This document shows, one piece after another, positions 42,065-61,190 of a DNA stretch of 64,000 nucleotides (position 1 is the stretch's first letter; each line of letters starts with the position of its first letter). The stretch is taken from positions 1,090,443 to 1,154,442 of the forward strand of contig JAVLKG010000001.1 in the NCBI GenBank assembly GCA_032128875.1. Direction: 5' to 3'. Under the pieces are notes generated by a model. The model had not been told where the DNA came from. It did no database searches and saw only the letters and a program-made list of their open reading frames with translations. The position numbers were made by a program, and so were the translations under genes. This stretch comes from Candidatus Melainabacteria bacterium 17Bon1m (lineage in GTDB: Bacteria; Cyanobacteriota; Vampirovibrionia; Obscuribacterales; Obscuribacteraceae).

Positions 42065-42321
42065 TAAGACCGCCTTTTCATTAATTTCGCCGTCTTGGTG
42101 ACAGCTTGGAAGGCTCGGACTCCGGCATGTCTGGTCGCCAAGAGATGCTGCTGTAAAGCCTTCCCAAATTTTGTGCCCGCTGCTTTTTTCTATTAAACAG
42201 ACTGTATACAGATCAGAATATGAGACTTTAATTTGCCGTGTGCAAGAATAGCTAGCAAGGGTTTTGCGATAGCGCCTTTGAATTTCAGGGCTTTTCCAGC
42301 GATTTATTATCTGCACAAATC

Positions 42322-43731
42322 ATGACTGAAAGAGCCGAAGAAACCAAAGAGGAAGCCACAAAGGATACGCTTTTGAATTCAGAGCCATCGAATTCCCCTA
42401 AAGGCAATGCGGCAAATAAAATGGACAAACCAATTCCCACGGCTTGGGGATACCGCGGGTTTGTTTTGGTAAGTTGCACCTTCGTCATTTTCGAGCTTAT
42501 TTTTGTCACGCTATATTCGACCACATCATGGTTTTCCACCGATATCCGGTACCTAGGAATACCAGTGGTAATCGTTTTGCTTCCCATTGCCCATCAAATT
42601 CTCCTCTCTTTCGAAAGGAAAATCCTTCTGAAAATCGCCTCGCCTCTGCGCGATGGTTTGCCACTAATTTTGTATTGGAATTGGATAAAACTCGACGAAA
42701 CCGCGCTTTCAATCGGGCTGAGAAAGGTTGCGTATTCTGCAATCGATGAACTGAAACTGACTATTTGGGGAAATTTGCACATCCGTACTCGCGCGTTGCG
42801 TACCGGCTTCGAGAATACGAGCGATGCTCGAATTTCGGCTGGTGATGGGAATGTTTCGACCGGAGACGCCCGTGTTTTAGCAGATGATGCCAGTGTTTCG
42901 GCTGCTTCTTCTAAGGGCGAACCCACTGATCTGATTTTCAAGCTGCCACTGGGAGTGGTATCGCCTCAATTTCAAAAGATGTTGATTGAAACTGTGAAAA
43001 AGGCAAATCCGCATGTGGAGATCAATAAGCGTTTGAGAAAGCGCCTTTCGCAGCAGGATGTTTCAACCACTCAAATGGTAGGCGTGATGGGCGCAGCTTT
43101 TCTGCTCATAGTACTTCTCGACTTAGGCCAGGCTTCTTACACGTCCCTGGATGTTTTGAAAAACTATTACCTTGCCGATTTGAATGCCCGGAAGCACGAG
43201 ATGGCTGTTGCCGAAAGCTATCTAGAAACTGGCGATAAGCTCATAACCGGTGCACTGCCGATGTCCTGGATCAAGACGAAATTCTTTGACGAAGGTAATG
43301 GTGCTGCAGGTGTCAAAGTTGCGCGCGCTGAAGCGCTTTGGCAGCTTGGACGTCGAGAGGAGGCGGTCGCCGAATGCCGTAACGCCTTAAAGCTTTCACC
43401 GAAGGGCTTTCGTATCAACTTGCGAATGGCACGCATGCTGACCGCAATGGGGTCTCCGAAAGAGGCGAAAGCCGAAATTGAGCAGGCTATGGAGGCAAAT
43501 AAAGACTCTTTCGTGCCAAACGAATACATGATGGCGTTGGCGTTAGAGACATCCGGCAAGCTGGAAGCCCAAAAGCTCTACGAAACATATCTTAAGGAGC
43601 TGGATGAAGAGGTCTTCGGCGAAGAGCCTGTGTGGCCTCCGGGCGGCGAGCGAATGATACACAACGTCTGGTTTAGGGAGGACTTGACATTCCTGTTTCA
43701 GCGCCTTTTCAAACAGCTTGGGCGCTCTTGA
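42322..43731 (+). CDS. Membrane protein with C-terminal TPR repeats
   Basis: Two N-terminal TMs, one central TM, TPR-like 'RAEALWQLGRREEAVAECRNALKLSP'. Confidence 0.75.
   Translation: MTERAEETKEEATKDTLLNSEPSNSPKGNAANKMDKPIPTAWGYRGFVLVSCTFVIFELIFVTLYSTTSWFSTDIRYLGIPVVIVLLPIAHQILLSFERKILLKIASPLRDGLPLILYWNWIKLDETALSIGLRKVAYSAIDELKLTIWGNLHIRTRALRTGFENTSDARISAGDGNVSTGDARVLADDASVSAASSKGEPTDLIFKLPLGVVSPQFQKMLIETVKKANPHVEINKRLRKRLSQQDVSTTQMVGVMGAAFLLIVLLDLGQASYTSLDVLKNYYLADLNARKHEMAVAESYLETGDKLITGALPMSWIKTKFFDEGNGAAGVKVARAEALWQLGRREEAVAECRNALKLSPKGFRINLRMARMLTAMGSPKEAKAEIEQAMEANKDSFVPNEYMMALALETSGKLEAQKLYETYLKELDEEVFGEEPVWPPGGERMIHNVWFREDLTFLFQRLFKQLGRS
42823..42906 (+). repeat. Degenerate 21-bp in-frame tandem repeat (4 units)
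   Basis: Encodes DARISAG/DGNVSTG/DARVLAD/DASVSAA. Confidence 0.6.
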
Positions 43732-45134: not shown

Positions 45135-46529
45135 GTGTTGCCTGCCAGACTGTACTTTGCGGCGCTACTTTCTGTTTTCGCCGCTCTTTCGCCCCTTTGT
45201 TCGGCTGTAGCTGACACTGTTCAAGCTCCGACCGAGCAGACCAAAGCAGTGGACACAGTTCTGGACTCCAAGCGTCCAATTAGAGACAAATGGGCTCTCG
45301 TTGTAGGCATCAGCAATTTTGAAAATCCCAAAGTCCCTACGCTCAAATACTCGACAAAAGACGCACGCGACTTTTACAACTATTTGATCAAAGACGCAAA
45401 CTTCCAGCCCTCACATGTGCGTCTGTTGCTTGATGAGAAAGCAACGCGCAGGCGCATTATCTCTGAGCTTGGCAATAAGTTTTTGGCTCGCTTAGCACGC
45501 CCAGGGGACTTGATTGTCCTATTTTTTTCTACTCACGGTAGTCCGTCTCAGATGGATTTGCGAGGTAAGAGTTATTTGGTCACTTACGACGCGGATCCGG
45601 AAGACCTTGATGCTACGGGCATTGGGATGCAGGAAGTGAACGATAAGATTCACAGCCGCGTGCTTTCCGACCGTGTTGTGTTGGTTCTTGACGCATGCCA
45701 TTCCGGCAGCAGCGATCCGAATGCCAAAGGTATGTATCGCGTCGGCAATATGAATGCCCAAGAACTGGCTGAAGGTTCTGGTCAGTTGGTAATTTGCAGC
45801 AGCCGCCCTGACGAGCAATCTTGGGAGTCTAAGCGCTATGAGAATGGTGTTTTCACAAGAAATTTGCTGGAGGCTTTGCGGGGCTCAAGCGGAAAGTTGC
45901 CGCTCGGCGCAGCTTTCGAGAAAGCTCAGCAATTAGTGGAGACTGAAGTGCGTGAAGACCGGCCTGGAGCGCGTCAATCTCCAATGCTCAATGCAAAATG
46001 GGCGGGCAATGACATCGTACTCTCGGTTCCAGCGTCCGAACCGCAAAAGTTGGCTCCGACTGTAGTTGCAGATCTCGAGCCAGACAGCACAGCACCCAAT
46101 ACGGGACAATCTAGACTGTCCAGCAAAAACGTTTCAGAAGTGCAGACAATAGCAATGGCTCAAACAGTAAAAACAGCTTCTATGTTTCCTACTGCGAATC
46201 AAAAATTGGTTTTGACAGCCAGCTATTTTTCCAATGTGCCAAATCCGAAAGAAGCTCTGACTGGCGCCTATGAGGCATCCGCCGCTAATTTCAACAACGT
46301 CGAATTTTACTGGCGTAAAGCAAAACTTCTGATTCAATTAGGTAAATGGACATCAGCAATGGAGTGCCTTAAAGGATGTATCGTGGACGATCCGAATCAA
46401 TCGGACTTTTATTTGGCGCGCGCTCTTTGCTATCACCACATGAAAATGCATGGACTGGCAACACGCGATATAGAGACCGCTCAGTTCAAAAACCCTTTAG
46501 TCTCGAGAAATATAGAATTTGGAGAATGA
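45135..46529 (+). CDS. Exported caspase-family (peptidase C14) protease with C-terminal TPR
   Basis: Signal peptide; 'KWALVVGIS', catalytic 'FSTHG' and 'LDACHSG', 'GVFT'; TPR-like tail. Confidence 0.88.
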   Translation: MLPARLYFAALLSVFAALSPLCSAVADTVQAPTEQTKAVDTVLDSKRPIRDKWALVVGISNFENPKVPTLKYSTKDARDFYNYLIKDANFQPSHVRLLLDEKATRRRIISELGNKFLARLARPGDLIVLFFSTHGSPSQMDLRGKSYLVTYDADPEDLDATGIGMQEVNDKIHSRVLSDRVVLVLDACHSGSSDPNAKGMYRVGNMNAQELAEGSGQLVICSSRPDEQSWESKRYENGVFTRNLLEALRGSSGKLPLGAAFEKAQQLVETEVREDRPGARQSPMLNAKWAGNDIVLSVPASEPQKLAPTVVADLEPDSTAPNTGQSRLSSKNVSEVQTIAMAQTVKTASMFPTANQKLVLTASYFSNVPNPKEALTGAYEASAANFNNVEFYWRKAKLLIQLGKWTSAMECLKGCIVDDPNQSDFYLARALCYHHMKMHGLATRDIETAQFKNPLVSRNIEFGE

Positions 46530-47398
46530 GACTCCATCCAGCTTTTCTTTTGAAATTCATAGGGTTTGTGCTGATTCAGACCTCTTGCACGCAGACCCTG
46601 TTTGCAGCAGAGCTGGCTCCTTCGGATTCTCTTGCGAGGGGCATTACTCTATACAACCAAAAAAATTATGTTGCCGCGCAAGAATTTTTGGCAAAGGCAG
46701 TAAGCGGTGAACATCGTAATGCAGCGGTTGCGCATTACTATTATGCCAACGCGCTTATGCAGACAAATAAGATAAATGCTGCTTTGGAAGAATACGAGCG
46801 TTGTTACAATCTGGCTCCATTCAGTTCATTTTCCGGCTACTGCCGAATGGTGCTATTGAGGTATGGAAGAAGTCCTGATTCCAAATTAGAAACAAGAGCC
46901 GCTGGAAAAAACTCCGCGGAGCAAGGTGGCAGTATTCCTGGAACGGCAGCTGAAAAATTTGCCCGCGAAACGCCAGCAGTAGCCGAGAAGCCGCGCGATG
47001 AAGCTGAAGTCCAGGCATTAAAAGCTCGTCTGCCACGTCTTGTAGCAATAGTGAAAGAAACTCCCCTTGCATTGGATGTAATGGCTGACAATATTTCCTT
47101 TCGCTCTGCATTCGTCGGCGAAGCGGAGCAACGAAAGACTCGCGCTTTTGAGCGACTTGAGCAGTCGCGCCAAACTTTGAAGCATGCCGAAGCAGTAACG
47201 CATTCTTTTGTTCCGTCTGTCAAATCATTTGGCGAAACCGATGAAGAGTTCCGCGCCAGAAGAGTGAAGGCTGAGGAGACCGTTCAATCTTTACTTACAT
47301 CTTTTCGTGAGAATGTAAACGAGGCGGAAAAGAATTTCCAAACGGAATCTTCACTTCTGGACAATTGCATCAATGCCAGAAATGGCTATCAGTATTGA
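46526..47398 (+). CDS. Exported TPR protein
   Basis: ATGA overlap with the caspase stop; signal peptide; 'AHYYYANALMQTNKINAALEEYERCYNLAP'. Confidence 0.78.
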   Translation: MRLHPAFLLKFIGFVLIQTSCTQTLFAAELAPSDSLARGITLYNQKNYVAAQEFLAKAVSGEHRNAAVAHYYYANALMQTNKINAALEEYERCYNLAPFSSFSGYCRMVLLRYGRSPDSKLETRAAGKNSAEQGGSIPGTAAEKFARETPAVAEKPRDEAEVQALKARLPRLVAIVKETPLALDVMADNISFRSAFVGEAEQRKTRAFERLEQSRQTLKHAEAVTHSFVPSVKSFGETDEEFRARRVKAEETVQSLLTSFRENVNEAEKNFQTESSLLDNCINARNGYQY

Positions 47399-49114: not shown

Positions 49115-51508
49115 TTATTTCCCTGACGCTTCCAGTCCCACGCGAATTACCGGCAGTTTTTCTCCCAGATTCGACATTGTCTGATAGGTGAGAGCGGCGA
49201 CATCGGCTCTCGTTGCTAACTCATTTGGTTTTATCGATTCAGAATCGGGATAGCTGACAATGATGTTTGCATTAGCAGCCTTCGCAACGCTCGGCAGAGC
49301 CCATGTCGGCACGCTGCCACCGTCTTTGTATCGGCTCAATGCAGAGGTGTCCGCATTGGGATTTTGCAGAGCTTTGGCGAGAATCACAAGCGCTTGAGCA
49401 CGCGTGATTTTGTCTTCCGGGCGGAAACTGCCATCTGGAAATCCTGTTACCAGCCCCGCATCGCTGACCTGGCTGATCGCATTTGCTGCCCAATACTTTG
49501 CAGGGACATCTCTAAAGTTAGCTGGTCTGCCTGCTGGCGGCAGTTTCAGAGCACGCGTGGCAATCGCAGCAAATTGGGCCCTTGTGATGTAATCATTCGG
49601 CTTGAAAGAACCATCAGGAAATCCTCCGATGGTGCCGCGTTTTTGCAACAGCCCTATGTATTGCTCTGCCCAATGTCCGCGAGTGTCTGACGCTGCTCCG
49701 GAAGTATCGACTTTGATTGGTTTTGTCAACGTGCGAGCTATCTCCGAATCGAGACGGTCAAGGTCACGCGCGACAGTCATGACTTCCCAATCGGAGAGTT
49801 GGTTGTCTGAGCTTCTGAACGCACCTTCTACATCTTTTATGCGATCGAATTCGTGATTGAAGTCGCGGCGATTGTCTTCAGTAATTGCTCCGATTTTTGC
49901 GGCTTCTTCGATGCGATTTTGAATGGCAGTTTCTTTTGCTGCAATGTCTGGAAGTGGTGGCAGTGCTTTGTCAATGCGTGAAGAAACAGCATCGTACTCT
50001 TTGGAAAGTGCGATGATTGCTTGATCGCTCAAGCCACCTTCGGACCCTTTGAAAGTGGTTTCTAGTCCATTGATGCGAACAAGATCAGCCTTCAAAGCAC
50101 TCGCATCGTCTGGTCTTAAACGTCCAGAGGCAATCGCTTCGTTGATTTTGCGATCGAGATCGGCACGCCTGGTGCTGATCTCTGGAAGTGGTGCCACGGC
50201 TTTGTCTGCAGAGATTCTGAAATTGTCGAAGTCTGATGCTAACGTCGCTGATTCCGTGCTGTCTAAACGACCGTCTTGCATGAAATATCTGTATCGCGCA
50301 TCAATGCGGTCAAGTTGCGTGCGCAGATCTTGTGCTGCTGCTGTGCTCACGCGTCCTGTACTTTCGCTGGCTAAGAGACGCCTTTTGGCTTCAGTAACTC
50401 TTTGACTGACATTTTGTAAAGATGGGGTGCCACCGTATGTTTCAATCTTTGCTTTCAGGCTGTCTAAGTCGCGCGCCAGTGTCAGCGTTTCTGTATCCGA
50501 AAGACTTCCGTCAATGCGGAACGTCGCTTCTAGTGATGCGATACGATCGAACTCCTGTTTTAAATCAACAACTTGTTGCGAACTCAGTCTCCCGGAATAA
50601 AGCGCATCAGTAATCAATTTTTCAACTTCTTGCTGGCGTTGATCGATGCCGGGCGGATTGGTTGCTAGCGGCTGATAGCGGTCGAGCGCGGTGGAGAGTT
50701 TTTCCAATTCAATCGCCAGTGTCAGCGATTCGTTTGTATCTAACTTTCCATCGTTGCTCTTGAACGCAGTCTCTTGCGCTTCGATTCTGCTTAGCTCTTG
50801 TCCATAAATGTTTGCTTCGGCAAGTGTGATTTTTCCGCTCGCCAGCAGATCTTTGACGCGTCGATTGATCTCGATTTTCTTGGACTCGGTATTGGTGTCA
50901 TTGACGGTGACCGGCTTGATTTTCGCGTGAACGTTTTGTTGCAACTTGTCCAAGTCCACTGAGAGAGTGAGCAGCTCGTTGTTGTTCAAGTTTCCATCAG
51001 CTCTAAAAGAACTTTCCTGCAACTTTATGCGGTCCAGTTCAGCAAGAAAAACTTCCCCGTCCTGTCTGTTCAAGCGTCCACTGAATAGTGCGTCTGAAAT
51101 CTCACGCGTGATTTCTGCCGAGCGCCCTGGAAGGTCGGCTGTTGCTGTGGTTCTAGGCGCCAACTGAGAGTCGATTTGCCTTTGTAGATTGTCAAGCTCG
51201 AATGCGAGCCGCATCTTTTCCCATACGCTGAGCTTACCGTCCGCCATGTACTGGGTTTCACTCTGTTTTATGCGCTCCAAAGATGCCTTAAAAGAAGCAG
51301 CATTTTCGCTGGAAAGTCGTCCCTGCGTCTGTGCTTCAGCGATGCTTTGAGTCATTTTCGCCAGTCTGGTGCTCACATCCACCATTTGCGGCATCTGCCC
51401 AAACGTCTGTGCCCAGTTGGTTTGTGCCAGAGTCGGTTGAACCGCTATAGAACAGGTAGCCAAGGAAACCAGGGACAGTGACACAGCAAGAACAGCGGCA
51501 CGTTTCAT
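49115..51508 (-). CDS. Exported protein with seven helical repeats and three C-terminal SLH domains
   Basis: GGAGG RBS, signal peptide; 'GFPDGSFKPNDYITRAQF', 'GFPDGSFRPEDKITRAQA', 'IKPNELATRAD'. Confidence 0.9.
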   Translation of the reverse strand: MKRAAVLAVSLSLVSLATCSIAVQPTLAQTNWAQTFGQMPQMVDVSTRLAKMTQSIAEAQTQGRLSSENAASFKASLERIKQSETQYMADGKLSVWEKMRLAFELDNLQRQIDSQLAPRTTATADLPGRSAEITREISDALFSGRLNRQDGEVFLAELDRIKLQESSFRADGNLNNNELLTLSVDLDKLQQNVHAKIKPVTVNDTNTESKKIEINRRVKDLLASGKITLAEANIYGQELSRIEAQETAFKSNDGKLDTNESLTLAIELEKLSTALDRYQPLATNPPGIDQRQQEVEKLITDALYSGRLSSQQVVDLKQEFDRIASLEATFRIDGSLSDTETLTLARDLDSLKAKIETYGGTPSLQNVSQRVTEAKRRLLASESTGRVSTAAAQDLRTQLDRIDARYRYFMQDGRLDSTESATLASDFDNFRISADKAVAPLPEISTRRADLDRKINEAIASGRLRPDDASALKADLVRINGLETTFKGSEGGLSDQAIIALSKEYDAVSSRIDKALPPLPDIAAKETAIQNRIEEAAKIGAITEDNRRDFNHEFDRIKDVEGAFRSSDNQLSDWEVMTVARDLDRLDSEIARTLTKPIKVDTSGAASDTRGHWAEQYIGLLQKRGTIGGFPDGSFKPNDYITRAQFAAIATRALKLPPAGRPANFRDVPAKYWAANAISQVSDAGLVTGFPDGSFRPEDKITRAQALVILAKALQNPNADTSALSRYKDGGSVPTWALPSVAKAANANIIVSYPDSESIKPNELATRADVAALTYQTMSNLGEKLPVIRVGLEASGK

Positions 51509-51645: not shown

Positions 51646-53307
51646 TTATTTGCTGTACAAGCCTTTTAAGTCGTTCCAGGCATCATGTTTTTTACCTGGA
51701 GAATTAACTGCAGGTTTGGGTGGCGATGAGCGTTTTACGATATTTTGTGGACGAACTTTAGGTTGCGTTCGAATTCTTGGTGATGCTTGAACTCGCACTG
51801 GGGCTACTTTTGGTGCGTCGTTTACAGCAGGCTTAGTAGATTCGCGTGTACCTTTTTCCACAGTTTCTGTGCTGGATGTCGTAGAAGAACTTGGCGTCTC
51901 GCTTGTGGATGATGTGGTGGTTGAGTTCGGCGAAATGGTGTTCCCTTTGGGCTCATTAGGGTTTGCATTCGACGCATCAACGTTTGCATTCGGCGCGTTG
52001 GTTTGCGTTGTGGCTGTTTCTGTTTTTCCATTGCGCATCGAAACTGCGGCAAATAGACCCAGAGCGCAGAGTACTACAACAATGAAACCGACAATGACCA
52101 TCTTTCCTGCGTTAGATTTTTTTTGCTGATCTTCTGCATCTAAACTGCTGAATCTGTCCCGCGCTAATTGCCGAGTCGACGAACCTTTTCCTGAGTCATC
52201 GGTCTCTGCTGCTTTGCTTCCTCTGTCTAAGAAGGCATCTTCAACGCTCATGCCAGCCATCGGATCGAGTGCCAGATTGAAATTGTTTGCGAAATTTACT
52301 TGTGATACCGCATTTTGTTGCGCGCCAGAAACACCCATGCCTGCCATAATTTTGAGATTGCCAGATTCACGCGAAGCTGCTTCTGAGCACGCTTTTACAA
52401 GTGCAGTGCTCAACTCTCCAGCCGTTTGATAGCGGTCTTTAGGATCTTTCGCCATTGCTTTGAAGATCACGCGCTCAAGTTCATCCGGCAAATTCAGCAT
52501 CGGATTGATGGAACGCATCGAAGGAGGTGGGGTGTTGACGTGATATTGAATCAATTCGTAAATTGTGGTGCCGTTGTGGAAGGGATCTTTTCCAGTTAGC
52601 ATCTCGTACATAACGCAGCCGAATGAATAGATATCGGAGCGCGCGTCTTCAGGTTTCCCAACGCATTGCTCGGGACTGAGGTATGGAGGACTTCCCCATA
52701 GTTCGCCGGATTGAGTGAGCTTTCTACTTTCCTCACTTAGTTTTGCCAGACCGAAATCCACCACTTTGACGAAATCCATTTCGTCATCCATCAAGACAAG
52801 ATTGCCTGGTTTTAAATCACGGTGAACGACGCCATTTTTGTGCGCGTAATCGAGCGCACTGCACACCTGTACAGCAATGCGGGCAAAACGATCGATATCT
52901 AGCGGGCCTTCCTCTTTGATAAGCGCTTCAAGGCTGCGTCCGCGTAAATAGTCCATGACGACATAGGGCTGCTGCTCGTCGTCGAAAATGCAGTCGTAAA
53001 CCGTGACAATATGCGGATGATTGAGCGCGCACAACAGATTAATTTCGCGCTGAAATCTGTCGCGGTACACCTGTTTTGTGTCCAGCTGCAATTTCAAGGT
53101 TTTGATGGCGACCTGGCGATTGACGCGAATCTGAGTGGCGAGATAAACGACGCTCATTCCACCGGAGCCGAGCACATCATCAATGTGGAAGCGACCGTCT
53201 AGAACCGTACCTACGAGAGGATCGCGAGCTTTTCCCCTTTCGTTAGCGTTTTGGAGTTTTTCGCCGGAACTCAAATGGTTCACACCTTTCTGCGGTAGTG
53301 GGCACAC
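51646..53307 (-). CDS. Hanks-type Ser/Thr kinase with TM and low-complexity extracellular tail
   Basis: GSGGMS, VAIK, HRDLKPGN, DFG, 'GSPPYLSPEQ'; TM 'MVIVGFIVVVLCALGLFAAV'; start uncertain. Confidence 0.92.
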   Translation of the reverse strand: MCPLPQKGVNHLSSGEKLQNANERGKARDPLVGTVLDGRFHIDDVLGSGGMSVVYLATQIRVNRQVAIKTLKLQLDTKQVYRDRFQREINLLCALNHPHIVTVYDCIFDDEQQPYVVMDYLRGRSLEALIKEEGPLDIDRFARIAVQVCSALDYAHKNGVVHRDLKPGNLVLMDDEMDFVKVVDFGLAKLSEESRKLTQSGELWGSPPYLSPEQCVGKPEDARSDIYSFGCVMYEMLTGKDPFHNGTTIYELIQYHVNTPPPSMRSINPMLNLPDELERVIFKAMAKDPKDRYQTAGELSTALVKACSEAASRESGNLKIMAGMGVSGAQQNAVSQVNFANNFNLALDPMAGMSVEDAFLDRGSKAAETDDSGKGSSTRQLARDRFSSLDAEDQQKKSNAGKMVIVGFIVVVLCALGLFAAVSMRNGKTETATTQTNAPNANVDASNANPNEPKGNTISPNSTTTSSTSETPSSSTTSSTETVEKGTRESTKPAVNDAPKVAPVRVQASPRIRTQPKVRPQNIVKRSSPPKPAVNSPGKKHDAWNDLKGLYSK

Positions 53308-53372: not shown

Positions 53373-54536
53373 TTAGAAGGGTGGACCACCGCCGCCCGGA
53401 CCCATACCACCGCCGCCTTGAGGTCCCATGCCTCCACCTCCTTGCGGGCCCATTCCACCGCCGCCACCTTGGGGACCCATTCCGCCACCCTGACCGCCAG
53501 GGCCAAATGCGGAGGATCCCAATACTTTGGTCGCTGCGAGGTCGAAGCTGTGCATAAGCTCAAAAGCTTTGGCATCTTGATGGCTGGAAAAAGCCTTTTC
53601 GATTTCGGTTTTCAAATCCCGTAATCTGTAGCCTTCCGAGCTGTTCTTTCGTGTGACCTGGCTGATAATCTCGTTGCTCTGTGCATTGAAGGTCGCTTTA
53701 AGATGCTCTGCTTCGGGCGGAATGTACCCGCTGGCTGCGCTTTGAGCGGGGGGCGAACCATGCCCACTCGGTGACGTTCCTGCTCCAGCACCTGCTCCTG
53801 CGCCGGCCGATGAGGCTGTTTTGATAGCAGGAACTCCTCTGCCGCGCAAAGAATCCTTTGCTTGCTTGACCTGCTCTTCTTGTCCGGTCAATTTCGATTC
53901 GAGATAGGTCAGTTTTTGTGAGACCTTTTCGGCATCGTTCGCCTTGGCGAGCCCCTGAATCTCCTTGAAGATCGCCTCAAATGGCGAAACGCCAGTGCCC
54001 TGTGCTCGCAGTTTATCAATACGCTTCCATGCTAGCAAACGTCGCTCAACCTCTGGTCCATCATTGATTTCCGGCATATTGTCTGCCTGAACCGAGACGA
54101 GAGCCAGCGATTGCAACAGAGTGGCAGCCGAAATGCGTCCTGCACTGAAGTCATTGATCTCTGCACGCGAGATGGTGACGTGTCGTGCCGGCTTGCCTGT
54201 TTGGCTGAAGAGCACCTTCACCTTTTCAATTTGACCGGGCGCTCCTTCGATTAATGTTCTTGCGAGAAACATCGAATCAATCTTCAAATCTTTGTCTTGC
54301 GCGACTTCTCTCTCTTCTGCCAAAACCGTGACCAGCGGTCCGGTGCCAACTACAGTGACGCTCATGGCGCGAGCGCCTACGGAAGGATCACGCACCAGTG
54401 CCGTTAGTTGTGCGTTGGACAGGTTGGATTTGCCGCTTGCAACCTCAGCAAAAGCTGGAGACGGGCACGCTGAAAAAGCGACAAAACTGCCAATTGCCAC
54501 GCTCATCGCGGTTCGACGGGCGTTTGATATGGACAT
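53373..54536 (-). CDS. Secreted hypothetical protein with C-terminal GGGMGPQG repeats
   Basis: Signal-like N-terminus ending PAFA; Gly/Pro/Met tail; start uncertain (54536-54560). Confidence 0.7.
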   Translation of the reverse strand: MSISNARRTAMSVAIGSFVAFSACPSPAFAEVASGKSNLSNAQLTALVRDPSVGARAMSVTVVGTGPLVTVLAEEREVAQDKDLKIDSMFLARTLIEGAPGQIEKVKVLFSQTGKPARHVTISRAEINDFSAGRISAATLLQSLALVSVQADNMPEINDGPEVERRLLAWKRIDKLRAQGTGVSPFEAIFKEIQGLAKANDAEKVSQKLTYLESKLTGQEEQVKQAKDSLRGRGVPAIKTASSAGAGAGAGAGTSPSGHGSPPAQSAASGYIPPEAEHLKATFNAQSNEIISQVTRKNSSEGYRLRDLKTEIEKAFSSHQDAKAFELMHSFDLAATKVLGSSAFGPGGQGGGMGPQGGGGGMGPQGGGGMGPQGGGGMGPGGGGPPF

Positions 54537-54643
54537 GAATCTGGTCATGAAGACTCTCACCGTGAGGGGGCGCTAGATGATTCCAATGTAGGAATTTTAC
54601 CCGGCGGGCGGTCTTTCTAAGAAAGTTATGCGGACGTGGCGAT

Positions 54644-55174
54644 CTAGGGCAGGATTGTCCAGTTGACCGAGACGTAAGTATTTCCATCCGCGCGACCAAC
54701 GATGCTCACGGATATTCTTTCTTTTGCACGTGTTCCTTGCATCATGAATGCTGAGCCAGGTGGACCAATTTTGGCAAGCATTTCTTCTTTTGGTATCTGC
54801 AACGCAAAACTTCGTGACCGCAGTGCGGATTGGTAAAACGAGTTGACCGTGCTTGCCGAGTCTTTCGTAACGATGGACAAAGTTGCTGTAGGCGCACCTG
54901 CAGTGGTGTTTACAAAATTAGTAGACACAATGTTGCTGCGATAAACATCCACTGGAAAGTTTGTAGGAGCAGTTTGGGACATATGAAGATTCGGAATCTT
55001 CAGGTAAGCAGGCACTTCCCCCTTCTTCAGGTTAAGCACCCCTAGCTTGCGCGCCTTTTCCAAAGTTTCGGGTGGTGCTTGTGCAATCGCAATATTTGAA
55101 GAGGTTGTGAGTGCCATCATCAAACCGATAATCGCTTTAGATCGTGCACTGGCTTTTTTTGTTACCGAGACCAT
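54644..55174 (-). CDS. Secreted hypothetical protein
   Basis: Signal peptide ending IAIA-QA; 10 nt after the TadG-like gene. Confidence 0.68.
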   Translation of the reverse strand: MVSVTKKASARSKAIIGLMMALTTSSNIAIAQAPPETLEKARKLGVLNLKKGEVPAYLKIPNLHMSQTAPTNFPVDVYRSNIVSTNFVNTTAGAPTATLSIVTKDSASTVNSFYQSALRSRSFALQIPKEEMLAKIGPPGSAFMMQGTRAKERISVSIVGRADGNTYVSVNWTILP

Positions 55175-55184
55175 CTCTAAACCT

Positions 55185-56909
55185 CTAAATTAGGGGAACA
55201 CAAATACCAATGGAGATAACGTTTGTTTCTCGTTGTACTCTGACTTTTCCAAGGCAGCCATTAACACCTGTTCCGGGCTGCCAGAAGAGCGATTTGTCCA
55301 TCGTTCCAAAACCAAGACCGAAGTTTTCGACACAGAATGGGTCTGGAACAATAACAGGATGAAAAGGCGGCATAGCGGCAGGGAGCGAAATGCTGCTTTC
55401 TCCCTTTTTCTTTTCCGAACCATCAGGCGTTTGGTTGGCGATCAATGATAGCCACGGAGCTTGGGGATCTGCCACCACACCGCTGACAATAGGCAGGCAT
55501 CGGATTGACTTTCCATCAGGACTGTATAGAGCGAAGTCCTGAGACAATCCTGAAAGAAGTGCTGCAGAACAAAGAGGATTTGAAAGGGCTGAGTGAACTT
55601 CTGATGCAGTAACGGTTTCACCTACTTTTGTGATCATTTCGTTGCAGCGGGAAACCAATTCCTGCTCAATGTAATTCTCAGCACTTCCAGCCTTAGGTGG
55701 AAGGAAAACCATTCCGTCTACACCTGTAGCTAAAAGCGCGACATATTCCAAACCAACCGTAACACTGACTGCTTGTACTGTCGCACAGAGTGGCCCTCCT
55801 GCTGGAGCCGGTGGACTGCTCATCGACTTCGGCGTAAAACCATCCATCGTGTCTGTGAAATAGGTGACAGGAAATGCAAGTGGAACGAATTGCCAATTTA
55901 CTTTCGGTTTTTCTACTCTCAGTCTGACGAAACTGTGCGGAATCGCGGCTTTGTATGTTTGTCGTGGGTTGGTAATTACCCATGCCATACCCTTCTCAGC
56001 AGGCTTGCCAGGCTGAGACGCAACGCCTTCTGCCGAGAATGCATTTGGAACAGCATTAGACCAACCGGAGGCATTGTTCTTTGCCTTTTCGAAGTCACCT
56101 TTTGACACCATATGTGGTTTGTCTTCGAAGAGAAAGGGAACTTGCCAAATTGAATCTCCACCGAAGTCCAGGTTTTCATATCCTTTCAGGAAGAACATTC
56201 CATTGCTGTTTGCAGGCGCAGGCGATCGTCTGGTGTTGGTGACGTTGCTTCCCTTCCACGTAAATCCGTGGGGCGCAAAAAAGTTGTTTCCTGCGTTTCC
56301 ACCGATCATGATGTTGCTTTCAGCAACTTTGTTGGTCCCTTCAATCATCTTCGATGTTTGCCAGTTGAGTCCCGGAATTTCCTTTACTGAAGCGGAATTT
56401 CCGATCATACGAATGTTGTTTTGTCTTGCGAGATCTTTGAAAAAGGGATACAGCTCCGTTTGAATTTTCAATCTGGTGGCGAGGAGATCGCTGGTTTGCT
56501 CGGCGCTCTGCAGTGCGCTGGATGCATTGCTCATGCCGTTGTTATCTTGTCCTTCATTTTTCTGTGCGAGCGCATTTATTTTGTAGAGCATCGCTTCTGC
56601 CCAGACTCTATTGATGCGGCGCAAATTGACGGTCAATTTCGATGGATCCGGAATAATGCTGTTGTCGTCAGGATCTGAGCAAACATCCCAGAAGGCTTTG
56701 TTTGTGACCGGAACAGATATTTCATCAAGTGCCTTCTTGCCGACGTTTAGAGTGCCGGCGTCTATGGCGTTTTTGGTTTCTTTCTGTGCATTCATAAACA
56801 TGATGAAGAAGAAGAATCCAACACCGAGAACAACCAACGCCAGCCCAAGAGCCGCGGTGAGAGCTAAAATTGAGCCCTTTTCTCTTCTTGCTAATCGCGC
56901 CGTTGCCAT
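55185..56909 (-). CDS. TadG-like pilus-associated protein with pilin-type N-terminus
   Basis: 'RREKG|SILALTAALGLALVVLGVGFF' then 'KNAIDAGTL' (Tad-domain-like). Confidence 0.65.
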   Translation of the reverse strand: MATARLARREKGSILALTAALGLALVVLGVGFFFFIMFMNAQKETKNAIDAGTLNVGKKALDEISVPVTNKAFWDVCSDPDDNSIIPDPSKLTVNLRRINRVWAEAMLYKINALAQKNEGQDNNGMSNASSALQSAEQTSDLLATRLKIQTELYPFFKDLARQNNIRMIGNSASVKEIPGLNWQTSKMIEGTNKVAESNIMIGGNAGNNFFAPHGFTWKGSNVTNTRRSPAPANSNGMFFLKGYENLDFGGDSIWQVPFLFEDKPHMVSKGDFEKAKNNASGWSNAVPNAFSAEGVASQPGKPAEKGMAWVITNPRQTYKAAIPHSFVRLRVEKPKVNWQFVPLAFPVTYFTDTMDGFTPKSMSSPPAPAGGPLCATVQAVSVTVGLEYVALLATGVDGMVFLPPKAGSAENYIEQELVSRCNEMITKVGETVTASEVHSALSNPLCSAALLSGLSQDFALYSPDGKSIRCLPIVSGVVADPQAPWLSLIANQTPDGSEKKKGESSISLPAAMPPFHPVIVPDPFCVENFGLGFGTMDKSLFWQPGTGVNGCLGKVRVQRETNVISIGICVPLI

Positions 56910-56996: not shown

Positions 56997-57410
56997 TTAG
57001 CGGGGAGCTCCGCCAACGATTGGCTCGACAGCCGTACCTCTGAAGGTTATTTCGTTCAACCCTGGAAAAGGTACCGGCACGCGAACAACCATAGTGGTTT
57101 TTGCTGTGCAAACATCATTATCTTTATATGCAAGATCATCCAGCGTTAGTGACTTGACGATACCTGATTGTTGAAAAGTAGCCAAAACCTTGTCGGCTGC
57201 TTCGCCGGCTGATTGTGGATTTGGTTGATTTGCACCAGCTCGAGCACAGTTTTTCACTGCAGTATCGTTCATCGAGTTCGCTACTACGATTGCAATTAAA
57301 TCAACAATCAAAAGAGCAATCGGAATCAAAATCAGAGCCCCCAGTGCAGCTTCAATCAAGCTGACACCTCTTTTGTTTCTTCGAGATTGCACTTTTTTTG
57401 ACACTTGCAT
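56997..57410 (-). CDS. TadE-like pseudopilin
   Basis: 'RNKRG|VSLIEAALGALILIP', 'ARAGA'. Confidence 0.8.
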   Translation of the reverse strand: MQVSKKVQSRRNKRGVSLIEAALGALILIPIALLIVDLIAIVVANSMNDTAVKNCARAGANQPNPQSAGEAADKVLATFQQSGIVKSLTLDDLAYKDNDVCTAKTTMVVRVPVPFPGLNEITFRGTAVEPIVGGAPR

Positions 57411-57435: not shown

Positions 57436-57990
57436 CTACTGTTGGGAAAAGTCTGGATTTTCCATTTGCTTTTCCTGAAAAACGACTATCGGAAAAGGCG
57501 CATTTATCCCCGGAATACCGACGAAAAATGGAATTGGTAAAAATGGATTGCAGGTGACTGTCGTGCGCACTCTAACTATGACATCCTGGGCATCAGTAGC
57601 GCCCTTGCCGGTTTCCGTTTGACCATTTCTGTAAGAGACATCCGTTTGTACATTGCCGGACATGTTGACGAATTTGCCCATGCCTCCGCGCCATGTATCT
57701 GGAATTCCTTTTTTGATATCGCCGCCAGGATTTGCAGCTTCGCTGGCTCTAATCAGCGCTGCCTGTGCGACCTGGTTGTAATTGAGAACCATAATCGTGC
57801 AGTAAGACAAACATACGCTCAACAAATCAACGAGCGGAAAAAATATGCAAATTACGAGGACAAGTATTCCTGGCCCAAACTCAGCAATACCCGCACCGCG
57901 ATTGGTGCGTCGTCTTCGAGTTCTTATCCTTTCAACCGACATGTTTCGTCCCTCAGAACTTTTCGAACCCGTTAACTGTCGGTTCGACAT
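57436..57990 (-). CDS. TadE/F-like pseudopilin
   Basis: 'RRRTNRG|AGIAEFGPGILVLV'; start may be 57942. Confidence 0.75.
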   Translation of the reverse strand: MSNRQLTGSKSSEGRNMSVERIRTRRRRTNRGAGIAEFGPGILVLVICIFFPLVDLLSVCLSYCTIMVLNYNQVAQAALIRASEAANPGGDIKKGIPDTWRGGMGKFVNMSGNVQTDVSYRNGQTETGKGATDAQDVIVRVRTTVTCNPFLPIPFFVGIPGINAPFPIVVFQEKQMENPDFSQQ

Positions 57991-58219: not shown

Positions 58220-60823
58220 ATGAGCAAGAAGAAGAAACCTTCGGCTAAGCAAACCAAGCCTAATACGCAGGATTCTGCTGATAAGTCAGCTAAGGAAACA
58301 GATGCGCCGAAGAAAGACGCGTCTGATTCAAAGAAGGAAGTGGCTTCTAAGCGTTCCTCCGTTGTTGCTTCGCAATCAAAAGACAAGCAGCCCGAGCAAG
58401 TCGAGTCGAAATCAGAAAAATCAGAGAGTGTCTCAAAGGGCAAAGAGGCTGCCGAGAGCAAAGCCACTGCTTTAAAGAGTAAAACTGCCGGCAAGGCTTC
58501 TACCAAGGGTCAGAAGGGCGATAAGAAGAAAGATAAGACCCCTCGTCAATCCCTTGAAACTGAAGAGTCCGCAACAGAGCCGGTTGATGAGTCTGCTGTG
58601 TCGCCAACTGGTGACGTCGAGGTTCAAGAATTAGCCCAGGGCAGTTCTACAGAACCCGCTCAGGCAGTAGCAGAAGCGCCTCTTCCAGCGACTTCGCCTA
58701 GTGAGCAAGTTCAAGAAAAAGCACCAGCTGCGGGCGAACAACCCCGAAAGGTCGCCAAGACTCTGATTGATGAGGAGATAACTCTTCCACCTCAAGGTTC
58801 GCCGCTTCACGAAGCGGATATCGCCAGTCTGAAAGAAGCTGCCGCCAAAGCCACGGGTATCGCACCCAAACCCGACGAGCCTCCGCGCAAAGTTGCGAAG
58901 ACTCTGATGGAGATTGATCAGGACTCCCTGCGGAATGCAATTGAGGCTTCTTCGAGAGCCACCGAAAATGAAATTGCTGCAGCGCGCCTTAGAGATGCAG
59001 TGGAAGCATCGGCGCGAGCTATCGAAGACGAGATTGCAGCTGCAATCGCAGAGTCTCAAGCTCCTGAAAATCCTGGTGCGGTTACTTCATCTGCTGCTCA
59101 AGAGACTGTTTCCAAACCAACAGTTCCCAAATCGGCTGATCGAAAAATTGCAAAAACGATGCTCGATTTTAAAGCGGAAGAGTTTTTCGAGCTTGCCGAT
59201 TTTGGCACGGATAGCGCTAGTGGAGCGGGTTTGGCAAATCCTACAGCTTCAGCAGATCCAGCCACTCCAAAGACTCCGGCCTCGTCTGAAGCAAAACCAT
59301 CGGCTTCCCCACCGGGACAGCAGCCCCGCAAAGTCGCAAAGACAATGCTTGAGGTCGATGTAGCAAACATCAACGCCATGGTTGAACAGGCAAGTGCAGC
59401 AGCGCAGGCACAAAATGCGTCGACGGAATCTGCGGCCCAGGCATCGCAGAGAATGCCGGCAGAAGCCTTCGCAGACGCAACTCATGAACCGCGCGATCTG
59501 TCTGCCGGATATGATGACGTCAGCATGGACGACTTGAACGAATTCGCCCAAGCACTTCGCGACAATACAGCTATGAGCCCACCTGGTTCTCGTGCGGAGC
59601 GTTTGAGAAAGACCTTCATGGGCATTCGCAAACGCGGACTCTCCAGCTCTCCATCAATGCCTGGTGTGAGTTTTACAGAAGAAAACGCAACACCCAATTC
59701 GGCTGAATCTGTAGCGCCATTGCAGGTTTCCCGCTCGCTTCATCCGCTGGATAATTTCTCTTTCGACAACCTTTGTCCCTCTGATGATGTTTCACCCTCG
59801 GGCTCACAGTCAGAATCCATGCCGCCGGAGCACGATGTTTTGGCTGACTCGATCTCACCTGTGCAAAGCGAGCAGTCGGAATATGCCGAGTGGCACGAGC
59901 CTCAAGACCAGGGCTCTTTCGGTAAGAAGAACACCGGCACTGTTGAACTCAGCCAAAATACTCACGATACTGAAGCCAGCGCATTCAAAGGCGAGACAAC
60001 CGTTTGGCCTGACGAACAAGAGAAGCGGGATGCCGAGGCGCGGCAGGGGGCTGTCAAACCAGAACGGTTTATCCCAAAAACCATGCTCGATATGGACTTC
60101 TTGAAGGAAAGTCTCTCGGTTTCCGTCAGTCGAGCCGAACAGCGTTTAGCGGAATCTATCGCCCAAAAGCAATCTGAGCCGCCTAAGCAGGTGCTTACGG
60201 CAGACGACTATAAGATGGCAACGCCCAACTGTCCTTTCGTGTGGTCAGACAATTCTGACAATCCCAAAGAAAGGGTGAAGTACTGTACTAACTGCAATGC
60301 CCAGGTCTATAACCTGTCCGGCTTCGATATGAATGAATCACAGTCGCTCATCTTCAAGCGGGAGAATCGCAACAACGCACCGCTGTACAAGCGTGAAGAC
60401 GGCAAGTTCATGACGAGCGATTGTCCGATTGCGCTGAAGAAGAAGAAAGACAAGCAAATGCTTATTGGAGGCGCTGCGCTTGTTCTGGTTTTGCTCATCA
60501 TTATGGTCGTGGCTTCATTCATGGCACCTCAGCCTCCGCAGGCACCTACGTCGACTGCGACAGATTCGTCTACAAGTTCTGACACTGCAACTTCTTCAAG
60601 TACGAGCGAATCAACAAATGATGTTTCCGGCTCAAGTAAGACTGGCGCCTTAGATCCTCCGGGCACCTTCCACTACAAAAAGGGTAAAGTCACCAAGGAG
60701 CCTGACACTGGCGCCCCAGCCGTTACCGTGCCCCAGGATAGCCAGCCTGCTGTCCCCGGAACTAATTCCGGCTACGATGAAGGCGGCCAGTTCTGGCAAT
60801 ATTCGGACAAGGGCAATAACTAA
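58220..60823 (+). CDS. Large disordered membrane protein with repeated RK[VI]AKT[LM][ILM][DE] motifs, a Cys-rich domain and a C-terminal TM
   Basis: 867-aa ORF; 'CPFVW...YCTNCNAQVYNLS...FMTSDC'; TM 'MLIGGAALVLVLLIIMVVASFMA'. Confidence 0.85.
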   Translation: MSKKKKPSAKQTKPNTQDSADKSAKETDAPKKDASDSKKEVASKRSSVVASQSKDKQPEQVESKSEKSESVSKGKEAAESKATALKSKTAGKASTKGQKGDKKKDKTPRQSLETEESATEPVDESAVSPTGDVEVQELAQGSSTEPAQAVAEAPLPATSPSEQVQEKAPAAGEQPRKVAKTLIDEEITLPPQGSPLHEADIASLKEAAAKATGIAPKPDEPPRKVAKTLMEIDQDSLRNAIEASSRATENEIAAARLRDAVEASARAIEDEIAAAIAESQAPENPGAVTSSAAQETVSKPTVPKSADRKIAKTMLDFKAEEFFELADFGTDSASGAGLANPTASADPATPKTPASSEAKPSASPPGQQPRKVAKTMLEVDVANINAMVEQASAAAQAQNASTESAAQASQRMPAEAFADATHEPRDLSAGYDDVSMDDLNEFAQALRDNTAMSPPGSRAERLRKTFMGIRKRGLSSSPSMPGVSFTEENATPNSAESVAPLQVSRSLHPLDNFSFDNLCPSDDVSPSGSQSESMPPEHDVLADSISPVQSEQSEYAEWHEPQDQGSFGKKNTGTVELSQNTHDTEASAFKGETTVWPDEQEKRDAEARQGAVKPERFIPKTMLDMDFLKESLSVSVSRAEQRLAESIAQKQSEPPKQVLTADDYKMATPNCPFVWSDNSDNPKERVKYCTNCNAQVYNLSGFDMNESQSLIFKRENRNNAPLYKREDGKFMTSDCPIALKKKKDKQMLIGGAALVLVLLIIMVVASFMAPQPPQAPTSTATDSSTSSDTATSSSTSESTNDVSGSSKTGALDPPGTFHYKKGKVTKEPDTGAPAVTVPQDSQPAVPGTNSGYDEGGQFWQYSDKGNN

Positions 60824-60893
60824 ATTAAGGGAAACAGCCCGAAAGCACGCGCGAGTGTCTCAGTTAGCTGACCGGAAGGTTGTGCCTTGCCGA

Positions 60894-61190
60894 TTATTCG
60901 ATTCTGAAGAAGGTTCTGCCCACTTTGATGACATCAAGTGGCGCTAATTGATGTGGTTTGGAAAGCAGCTGGTCGTTAACGCTCGTGCCATTGCTGCTTC
61001 CCAGGTCTTCTATCCACCAAATGCCGTTGTCCCAGAAGATGCGAGCGTGGCTAGCCGAAGCGTAGCCGTCATCAGGCAAAATGACCTGATTGTCATCAGC
61101 GCGTCCCAATTTTATGGACGGATCGTTTAAGACGTATCTCTCGCCGGTTGCCTGGTTTACCAAAGTTGGCAAGCGGGGTTCGTTGCTCAT
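60894..61190 (-). CDS. Stand-alone FHA domain protein
   Basis: 'LGR', 'ASASHA', 'EDLGSSNGT' pThr-binding residues intact. Confidence 0.93.
   Translation of the reverse strand: MSNEPRLPTLVNQATGERYVLNDPSIKLGRADDNQVILPDDGYASASHARIFWDNGIWWIEDLGSSNGTSVNDQLLSKPHQLAPLDVIKVGRTFFRIE

Follow-up and report, generated by a model that had tools for sequence, protein, structure and literature searches.

A repeated threonine motif on a membrane scaffold paired with a minimal FHA protein: a candidate phosphothreonine docking array in Obscuribacterales

Why would a membrane protein carry the same short threonine-containing peptide several times over in a disordered segment, immediately beside a gene that encodes a bare FHA domain? 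The question is raised by a locus in the genome of Candidatus Melainabacteria bacterium 17Bon1m, where a 64,000-nucleotide stretch of DNA (hereafter the window) was analyzed. An open reading frame (ORF) on the forward strand (58220..60823, +) encodes a protein of 867 amino acids, here called the scaffold, to which neither Pfam nor NCBIfam assigns a family. A convergent gene separated by 70 bp from the scaffold stop codon (60894..61190, -) encodes a stand-alone FHA-domain protein of 98 amino acids (PF00498). The initial annotation of this DNA interpreted the pair as a multivalent phospho-docking scaffold and its reader. That interpretation is partly supported by the sequence comparisons described here. 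The scaffold may be a multi-site phosphothreonine (pThr) docking array that is read by the neighboring FHA protein, a proposal for which we consider the chances to be about even.

Six copies of the motif, which has the general form R-[KR]-[VI]-[AP]-[KR]-T-[ML]-[LMI]-[DE], were located on the forward strand of the scaffold gene, one of them a variant. Copy 1 (RKVAKTLID, 58745..58771) carries T181 on an ACT codon at 58760, copy 2 (RKVAKTLME, 58886..58912) carries T228 on ACT at 58901, copy 3 (RKIAKTMLD, 59141..59167) carries T313 on ACG at 59156, and copy 4 (RKVAKTMLE, 59327..59353) carries T375 on ACA at 59342. These are followed by a variant copy (ERLRKTFMG, 59597..59623) with T465 on ACC at 59612, and by copy 6 (RFIPKTMLD, 60065..60091) with T621 on ACC at 60080, directly before the folded C-terminal module. 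The peptides and threonine codons are exactly those given in the initial annotation, which had described the variant as a weaker LRKTFMG. It had also described the surrounding region as disordered and otherwise non-repetitive, and this description is accurate: Tandem Repeats Finder detected no tandem repeats in the scaffold gene, and in an AlphaFold2 model built on a 21-sequence alignment, 599 of the 867 residues have a predicted local distance difference test score (pLDDT) below 50, which places the motif array in a largely disordered region. Codons vary from copy to copy, and the direct DNA repeats that cover the motifs are the motif-coding stretches only (72-94% identity). The pattern KT[LMFIV][LMFIV][DE] has five matches in the scaffold; 20,000 shuffles of the protein gave none in 19,604 trials, one in 391, and two in 5. 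Similarly, when all six frames of the window were searched for R..[AP][KR]T[LMIFV][LMIFV][DEG], five matches were returned, all of them in the scaffold ORF.

The motif is retained by relatives of the scaffold. A word-indexed search identified 27 such relatives, 20 of them full-length (40-94% identity); the full-length relatives that are named are labelled Melainabacteria, Obscuribacterales, or “Cyanobacteria bacterium”. Across 21 aligned orthologues of 42-94% identity, the motif is conserved column by column while the linkers diverge. T228, T313, T375, T465, and T621 are invariant and T181 is kept in 20 of the 21. In broader alignments, T313 is at least 90% conserved in 28 sequences, and T621 and D624 are invariant both in these 28 sequences and in 38 C-terminal segments. 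The initial annotation had read a conserved peptide with differing codons as a sign of selection on the protein, and had made its interpretation depend on conservation of the threonines in relatives; both points are borne out. The variant copy reads LRKTMLG in orthologues, and the third residue after its threonine (+3) is Gly or Asn in 20 of the 21 and Glu in one (P0020). In 13 of the 21 orthologues a further, seventh copy (PRKVAKT-x-LE) separates copies 1 and 2; it is degenerate or missing in the other eight, including the window protein, from which it has been lost. The Gly or Asn of the T465 copy, the lost seventh copy, and a conserved TadE/TadG-like gene set described below were not part of the initial annotation.

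The motif extends beyond the alignable orthologues. Distant paralogues (24-30% identity) retain two to six copies in regions that cannot be aligned. A consensus pooled from 73 distinct family proteins reads R at -5, K or R at -4, V, I, or L at -3, A, P, or S at -2, and K (255) or R (50) at -1, followed by T, then M (171) or L (109) at +1, L, M, or I at +2, and D (146), E (135), or G (24) at +3. When the same proteins were searched with a pattern that specifies the flanks only ([RK]x[VILF]x[KR]-X-[LMIV][LMIV][DE]), the unspecified residue was Thr in 223 of 224 instances, Ala in one, and Ser in none. A similar pattern applied to 139 further cluster representatives found Thr at this position in 278 of 281 cases. 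Orthologous columns are counted repeatedly, so the instances should not be taken as independent observations. Other motif positions swap freely with their chemical twins and the threonine never becomes serine, as a phosphothreonine-specific reader predicts. FHA domains read pThr and reject pSer, and they select the residue at +3, where the motif has Asp or Glu. Collectively, the sequences indicate that threonine is specifically required and that the motif is under selection.

The wider genomic setting was surveyed in 42 loci obtained from one scan of GTDB species genomes with the scaffold. A local hidden Markov model of the C-terminal module recognized 47 family genes among the 2,552 ORFs of these loci. 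The strict motif is absent from the 348,802 residues of the non-family ORFs in the same loci. Spacing of the motif differs between members. In the window protein it is irregular, unlike in three distant members with regular arrays: L020 (9314-11983, +) has ten copies, nine of which lie about 38-44 residues apart (positions 212-538), while L027 (8672-10825, +) and L031 (8879-10783, +) each have seven copies, six of them about 36-46 residues apart. The regular arrays suggest expansion by duplication of a unit of about 40 residues.

The assignment of the small convergent protein to the FHA domain is secure. Its match to PF00498 scores 65.6 bits against a cut-off of 20.7 (E 5.3e-18) and covers profile positions 2-67 of 67, and Pfam detects no domain besides the FHA fold. 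Ten residues (G29, R30, S45, H48, S65, S66, N67, G68, T69, R92) are invariant in 35 FHA sequences. The initial annotation had described a convergent, minimal FHA domain with intact Gly-Arg, Ser-x-x-His, and Asn-Gly-Thr residues, and these residues are among the invariant ones. They also align with those of the closest solved structure, the FHA domain of Mycobacterium tuberculosis TB39.8 (2lc1, 3po8, 3oun; E 1.2e-10 to 4e-10), which we take to be FhaA (Rv0020c). Two more specific assignments were rejected. The FhaB/FipA equivalog NF049868 scores 85.7 bits, below its cut-off of 125, and is matched only at profile positions 75-157 of 158; the type VI Fha/TagH family TIGR03354 scores 36.4 bits against 120.25. 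Type VI secretion families are likewise absent from the Pfam matches of the 52 window ORFs scanned. No terminator was detected by a simple scan of the 70 bp that separate the two genes. Upstream of the FHA gene there is one promoter-like site (61284-61257, -), identified solely by its match to the consensus. Two co-folding runs that paired unphosphorylated scaffold residues 296-392, spanning copies 3 and 4, with the FHA protein scored 0.00, a value that weighs neither way on binding.

Linkage between the two genes is conserved and is correlated with the number of motif copies. An FHA orthologue was found by tblastn directly downstream of the scaffold, in convergent orientation, in all ten loci with a full-length orthologue (L001-L010). 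In these loci the FHA protein is 93-98% identical to that of the window, compared with 40-80% for the scaffold, 66-88% for a nearby kinase, and 49-98% for a TadG-like protein; the FHA gene is the most conserved gene of the neighborhood. Across the family as a whole, a convergent FHA gene lies 7-350 bp downstream of 23 of 41 evaluable family genes. A gene was counted as evaluable if an FHA gene was found or if at least 1,500 bp of downstream sequence was available, and L011, L015, L023, L026, L032, and L035 were dropped; in L035 the FHA gene lies upstream instead. Hence the adjacency is not unique to this genome, which was a further condition under which the initial annotation would have given up its interpretation. 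FHA-linked genes have 1-10 motif copies (median 5, n = 19) and unlinked genes have 0-5 (median 1, n = 18), counting complete ORFs and omitting four that are truncated at the 5' end. The difference corresponds to a Mann-Whitney p of 4e-6, a figure calculated from related rows and not to be read as an independent-sample probability.

There may also be covariation between reader and motif. In an FHA alignment of 24 loci and the window, the residue after Asn-Gly-Thr is Lys or Arg in the five linked loci whose motif reads [KR]-T-L-L-E (L020, L021, L027, L030, L031), and Ser or Thr in nearly all loci with K-T-M-L; the exception is L033, which combines T-L-L-D with Thr. The possible covariation is confounded by shared ancestry and is therefore treated as a lead only.

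Family genes often occur in several copies. Up to five loci were found per assembly (e.g. L033, L036, L038, L039, L041), and tandem or divergent pairs of family genes lie within single loci (L019, L028, L030, L034, L037). Among multi-copy members, usually only the one with many motifs adjoins an FHA gene.

On the basis of these patterns, we propose the following mechanism, in which phosphorylation, docking of the FHA protein, the choice of kinase, and the output are all inferred. A basophilic Hanks kinase would phosphorylate the motif threonines, and each resulting pThr-x-x-Asp/Glu site would become a docking site for the 98-residue FHA protein. In this way the array would translate the activity of the kinase into a graded response, bringing a minimal FHA adaptor to the inner membrane in a multivalent manner, with control of a pilus- or pseudopilus-type envelope machine as the output. 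The best candidate for the writer is a syntenic, membrane-anchored Hanks Ser/Thr kinase of 553 amino acids (51646..53307, -; PF00069, E 1.4e-55). Its kinase domain spans residues 41-295, and it has a hydrophobic segment around residue 420 and a tail of low complexity. The initial annotation had named two kinases as possible sources of phosphorylation. Synteny in five of seven evaluable orthologue loci speaks for this one, whereas the other (12698-14695), which combines Pkinase and LRR domains, lies 44 kb from the scaffold and is unsupported. Predicted topology would place the array, the kinase domain, and the FHA protein in one compartment. The further suggestions of the initial annotation, namely that the scaffold could count phosphorylation events and could cluster FHA proteins at the membrane, are speculation.

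Two other explanations have to be weighed, the first of which keeps phosphorylation and separates it from the neighboring FHA protein. The motifs could serve as docking or substrate sites for a kinase, or be bound by some other reader. The FHA protein would then recognize another phosphoprotein within the pathway, such as the kinase or a further envelope component, and adjacency would reflect a shared pathway rather than direct binding. Such an arrangement would fit the conservation of the basic residues at -5, -4, and -1 and the hydrophobic residues at +1 and +2, which are as conserved as the threonine and the +3 residue. It would also fit the 18 of 41 evaluable genes that have no adjacent FHA gene, and the FHA-less paralogues that adjoin a Hanks kinase, at 100 bp in L015, 222 bp in L034, and 31 bp in L035. 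There is a precedent in type VI secretion, where an Fha-family protein is given as the sole PpkA substrate known before TssL (PMC3953482). Against this explanation, motif copy number tracks FHA adjacency, and the pThr-binding fold is the only one that the FHA protein has. Moreover, many Ser/Thr kinases would tolerate serine, which is never found at the threonine position, as a pThr-specific reader predicts. We consider this alternative unlikely.

The second explanation dispenses with phosphorylation. The motifs could be phosphorylation-independent linear motifs, adding a strand or starting a helix in which T-x-x-D/E forms a capping box, and the FHA protein would be unrelated to them; they could bind a conserved cytoplasmic partner, for instance a pilus or secretion component, or dock back on the scaffold's own helix and zinc-ribbon module. 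The alternating hydrophobic and acidic pattern from +1 to +6 suits a strand or a helix, and wherever copy 6 is present in a family member, it is joined to the folded module. In addition, model helices begin 1-6 residues past the threonine in four copies (at residue 234 after T228, 314 after T313, 381 after T375, and 625 after T621). Closer inspection of the full-length model is less favorable: T313 is alone in an N-cap position, copy 1 is followed by no helix, T465 lies within the predicted helix 456-471, and no helix includes the R-K-V-A-K that precedes the threonine. At the N-cap, a capping box can have Ser, Thr, or Asp, yet serine occurs in none of the 224 flank-defined instances. With the threonine at the N-cap in one of six copies and never replaced by Ser, a helix capping box was rejected as the sole explanation. 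Motif residues have low pLDDT in both models of the scaffold, so no intramolecular docking is predicted, and the FHA linkage and copy-number correlation would be left unexplained. A phosphorylation-independent role of the motifs is in our view improbable. Finally, A, S, K, E, and P are abundant in the protein, but an origin of the repeats by chance or as a compositional by-product of a low-complexity, recently duplicated region has a negligible probability and is excluded by the shuffles (at most two copies, in 5 of 20,000 trials, against five observed), the tandem-repeat scan, the differing codons, the conservation in orthologues, and the family-wide threonine in 73 proteins.

The proposal of an array read by the FHA protein has its own difficulties. 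In the FHA protein, S45 is followed by Ala (A46, conserved in at least 90% of sequences), at a position where an Arg, Lys, or Asn contacts the phosphate in many FHA domains that bind pThr. The 18 evaluable family genes that lack an adjacent FHA gene also count against it, as does the T465 copy, which departs from Asp/Glu at +3 in nearly all orthologues and sits inside a predicted helix. Conservation over nine residues (basic at -5, -4, and -1, hydrophobic at +1 and +2) exceeds the needs of an FHA domain, from which it follows that the motif must be under the constraint of another reader as well, which could be the kinase or some partner unrelated to it. As for the enzymes, the candidate kinase and an adjoining gene for a 395-residue protein are both present in L001, L003, L004, L009, and L010 and are replaced by other genes in L002 and L007. 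Enrichment of Hanks kinases near family genes is weak: their density is 0.61 per 10 kb within 2.5 kb and 0.40, 0.47, and 0.11 further out, compared with about 0.31 per 10 kb in the window (two kinases in 64 kb). No PP2C-type phosphatase was found in the Pfam results of the 52 window ORFs scanned.

The scaffold consists of a Lys-rich N-terminus, the disordered motif array, a long helix, a small, beta-rich four-Cys domain, a transmembrane helix, and a tail. At the start, M1 and MSKKKK are kept in all 21 aligned orthologues. The long helix and the four-Cys domain occupy residues 625-740 (60092..60439, +). Its four cysteines (C671, C689, C692, C735) do not vary among 28 sequences, nor among 38 C-terminal segments, and belong to the signature CPFxW...YCxxC...LIFKREN...YKRxDGKFMTxDCP, and a separate AlphaFold2 model of residues 606-775 has a mean pLDDT of 78.1. 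Four invariant cysteines in CP...CxxC...CP spacing, together with model strands at matching places, make a zinc ribbon the probable identity of this module. Known structures offered no counterpart: the best match of the C-terminal profile among PDB sequences was a histone demethylase (E 0.027, not credible), and a Foldseek search of the C-terminal model against the PDB gave no match at E ≤ 0.001 (best E 0.63). Two weak family matches of the scaffold were rejected, namely New_glue (18.7 bits against a cut-off of 31, on the Ser/Thr-rich tail) and CbiN (13 bits, below the NCBIfam cut-off).

A transmembrane helix at residues 747-768 (60458..60523, +) follows a KKKKDK stretch and corresponds to the model helix 736-767. 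The order of a Cys-rich domain followed by a membrane segment is as the initial annotation had described it. The scaffold is thus a single-pass membrane protein with a cytoplasmic part of about 745 residues that is mostly disordered. By the positive-inside rule, the motif array and Cys module would be cytoplasmic and the tail periplasmic. This tail (60524..60823, +) is rich in Ser, Thr, and Pro, and ends in a conserved peptide, GYDEGGQFWQYSDKGNN. The end reads GYDEGGQFWQY-x-DKGNN and is strongly conserved; T848, S850, G851, E854, G856, F858, W859, D863, N866, and N867 are invariant in the 21 orthologues, and W859 is also invariant in 28 sequences. Conservation of the tail peptide hints at a periplasmic partner, and hence at coupling across the membrane.

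Genes on the other side of the scaffold bear on its possible output. Divergent from the scaffold is a gene for a membrane protein of 184 amino acids (57436..57990, -), which is syntenic by tblastn and has no Pfam match, so that its description as TadE-like rests on its neighbors. It is followed by a 137-residue TadE-like pseudopilin candidate (56997..57410, -), for which PF07811 TadE scores 16.9 bits (cut-off 22.9) and NF041390 scores 13.5 bits (cut-off 40); the designation draws on conserved synteny in addition to these matches below cut-off. A TadG-like protein of 574 amino acids with an N-terminal hydrophobic segment (55185..56909, -) has no Pfam match of its own. Its nearest Atlas clusters score 0.98 and have PF13400 Tad in 17-20% of members, and a Bdellovibrionota Atlas cluster that scores 0.96 has PF13400 in 84% of members. 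The fourth gene (54644..55174, -) encodes a 176-residue protein with a hydrophobic N-terminus that we read as signal-peptide-like. This four-gene set adjoins family genes in L001-L005, L007, L009, L010, L014, L016, L017, L019, and L029, and is present in part at L026. The divergent linkage of the scaffold-FHA pair to this TadE/TadE/TadG-like set makes a pilus- or pseudopilus-type envelope machine the probable target of control. Between the set and the candidate kinase is the gene for the 395-residue protein (53373..54560, -), which adjoins the gene for the 176-residue protein in L001, L003, L004, L009, and L010. The 395-residue protein has a Gly-rich C-terminus and a hydrophobic N-terminus that again looks signal-peptide-like to us.

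A set of type IV pilus genes (PilM/N, PilO-like, PilD, PilC, PilT, and PilB) is also present in the window, where it lies between 28.9 and 42.3 kb. One of its members is unusual: a gene at 39818-42316 (-) encodes an 832-residue PilB-like protein with an MshEN domain at residues 144-229 and, as read from the translation, a low-complexity insert of about 450 residues rich in Ala, Glu, and Lys. This insert accounts for the AT skew of -0.447 at 40001-42000. The protein ends after the first 108 of the 370 positions of the T2SSE ATPase domain, and its gene is directly upstream of a complete PilB gene (37607-39670, -) whose product has a double zinc ribbon at its C-terminus. The PilB-like protein may be either a paralogue that has been truncated or an N-terminal half with a regulatory role of its own. 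The stretch from the pilus genes to the candidate kinase contains four further ORFs, at 45135-46529 (+), 42322-43731 (+), 46376-47398 (+), and 49115-51508 (-), which encode a Peptidase_C14 protein of the caspase family, two proteins with TPRs, and one with three SLH domains.

The closest precedent for the proposed system is the PpkA, TssL-pThr14, Fha pathway. In the type VI secretion system of Agrobacterium tumefaciens, the inner-membrane protein TssL is phosphorylated on Thr14 by PpkA, and secretion is activated when Fha binds this pThr (PMC3953482). The two cases are alike in having a Hanks kinase, an inner-membrane pThr protein, an FHA reader, and clustered genes, which in the window are predicted from the genes. 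They differ in that TssL has one site and the scaffold family has six to ten copies of a nine-residue motif. Furthermore, the window FHA protein is a bare 98-residue domain, unlike type VI Fha, its neighbors are Tad-like, and the scaffold is unrelated to TssL. A second comparison is offered by the Rv1747 ABC transporter, in which a disordered linker with pThr sites at T152 and T210 accompanies a pair of FHA domains (PMC3138270 and PMC8339232). Both the transporter and, by prediction, the scaffold have a disordered, membrane-tethered segment with several phospho-acceptor threonines read by FHA. In Rv1747 the FHA domains and the two sites are in one polypeptide, whereas here reader and array would be encoded by separate genes, and the sites share a strict consensus.

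By sequence, the closest FHA domains are those of M. tuberculosis FhaA (Rv0020c, TB39.8) and FhaB/FipA (Rv0019c). Both are small FHA adaptors that act with membrane Hanks kinases on envelope processes. The window FHA protein differs from these proteins in lacking an N-terminal or transmembrane part, and in its partner and gene context.

Multi-site arrays are otherwise familiar from eukaryotes. The SDT repeats of MDC1 are read by the FHA domain of NBS1, and KNL1/Spc105 carries MELT repeats; in these arrays each phospho-Thr motif copy on a disordered scaffold recruits one reader, and dosage depends on the number of phosphorylated copies. By analogy, the scaffold could be a bacterial counterpart, with 6-10 identical pThr-x-x-D/E sites written by a basophilic Hanks kinase, proportional recruitment of the almost invariant FHA protein, and thresholded or condensate-like control of a Tad/pseudopilus-type machine in these non-photosynthetic relatives of cyanobacteria, although we think this rather unlikely. 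There is no homology between these arrays and the scaffold, the kinases are different, and the eukaryotic examples act in the nucleus or at the kinetochore, so that the likeness is one of function only and hypothetical here.

The motif array seems to have been added onto a far more widespread and equally uncharacterized membrane module. An exhaustive profile search with the C-terminal module matched 6,906 cluster representatives at E ≤ 1e-3, 4,696 at ≤ 1e-10, and 241 at ≤ 1e-30. An Atlas search with the same module gave leads below 0.9 only, in Myxococcota and Melainabacteria clusters. Among the matches are short proteins (P0207-P0320) labelled Myxococcota (Polyangiaceae, Sorangium, Byssovorax) or Fimbriimonas, which share the helix, four-Cys, and transmembrane module; they have E values of 1e-21 to 1e-24 against the C-terminal profile and read CxxW...RFCxxC...DG..T.DCP followed by a transmembrane helix. 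They differ from the scaffold in their length of 86-298 amino acids, and 111 of 114 lack [KR]T[hydrophobic][hydrophobic][DE]. They are annotated as hypothetical proteins and almost all are without a precomputed Pfam family. The module by itself looks like a large membrane-protein family that is uncharacterized.

In these searches the motif array itself was met only in proteins labelled Melainabacteria or Obscuribacterales, where any label is given. Some records of the scaffold family, the FHA protein, or both are labelled as oxygenic cyanobacteria or Proteobacteria, among them L022 and L037 (Drouetiella sp.), L029 and L030 (Proteobacteria bacterium), P0034, and P0044, and the FHA homologues include proteins labelled Trichormus and Oculatellaceae. 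Either the family extends beyond Obscuribacterales or the bin labels are unreliable. Among the papers listed for FHA proteins of Melainabacteria and for cyanobacterial FHA proteins, type IV pili, and threonine kinases, no title or opening of an abstract describes the scaffold family.

Most of what is known of FHA/Hanks-kinase signalling in bacteria concerns single phospho-sites, situated on segments that are folded or short. The locus described here would represent phospho-docking of this kind on a membrane component in the form of a multi-copy consensus array with a stand-alone minimal reader. If the proposal is true, bacteria would have in this locus their clearest candidate for a phospho-docking array of the multivalent, dosage type: a nine-residue consensus repeated 6-10 times on a disordered membrane scaffold and paired with a bare FHA protein that is 93-98% identical across genera. 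The idea is testable in spite of the organisms being uncultured, as both the exact peptide (RKVAK-pT-MLE) and the exact 98-residue reader are defined. It also provides a first hypothesis for a large unannotated protein family with 6,906 cluster representatives.

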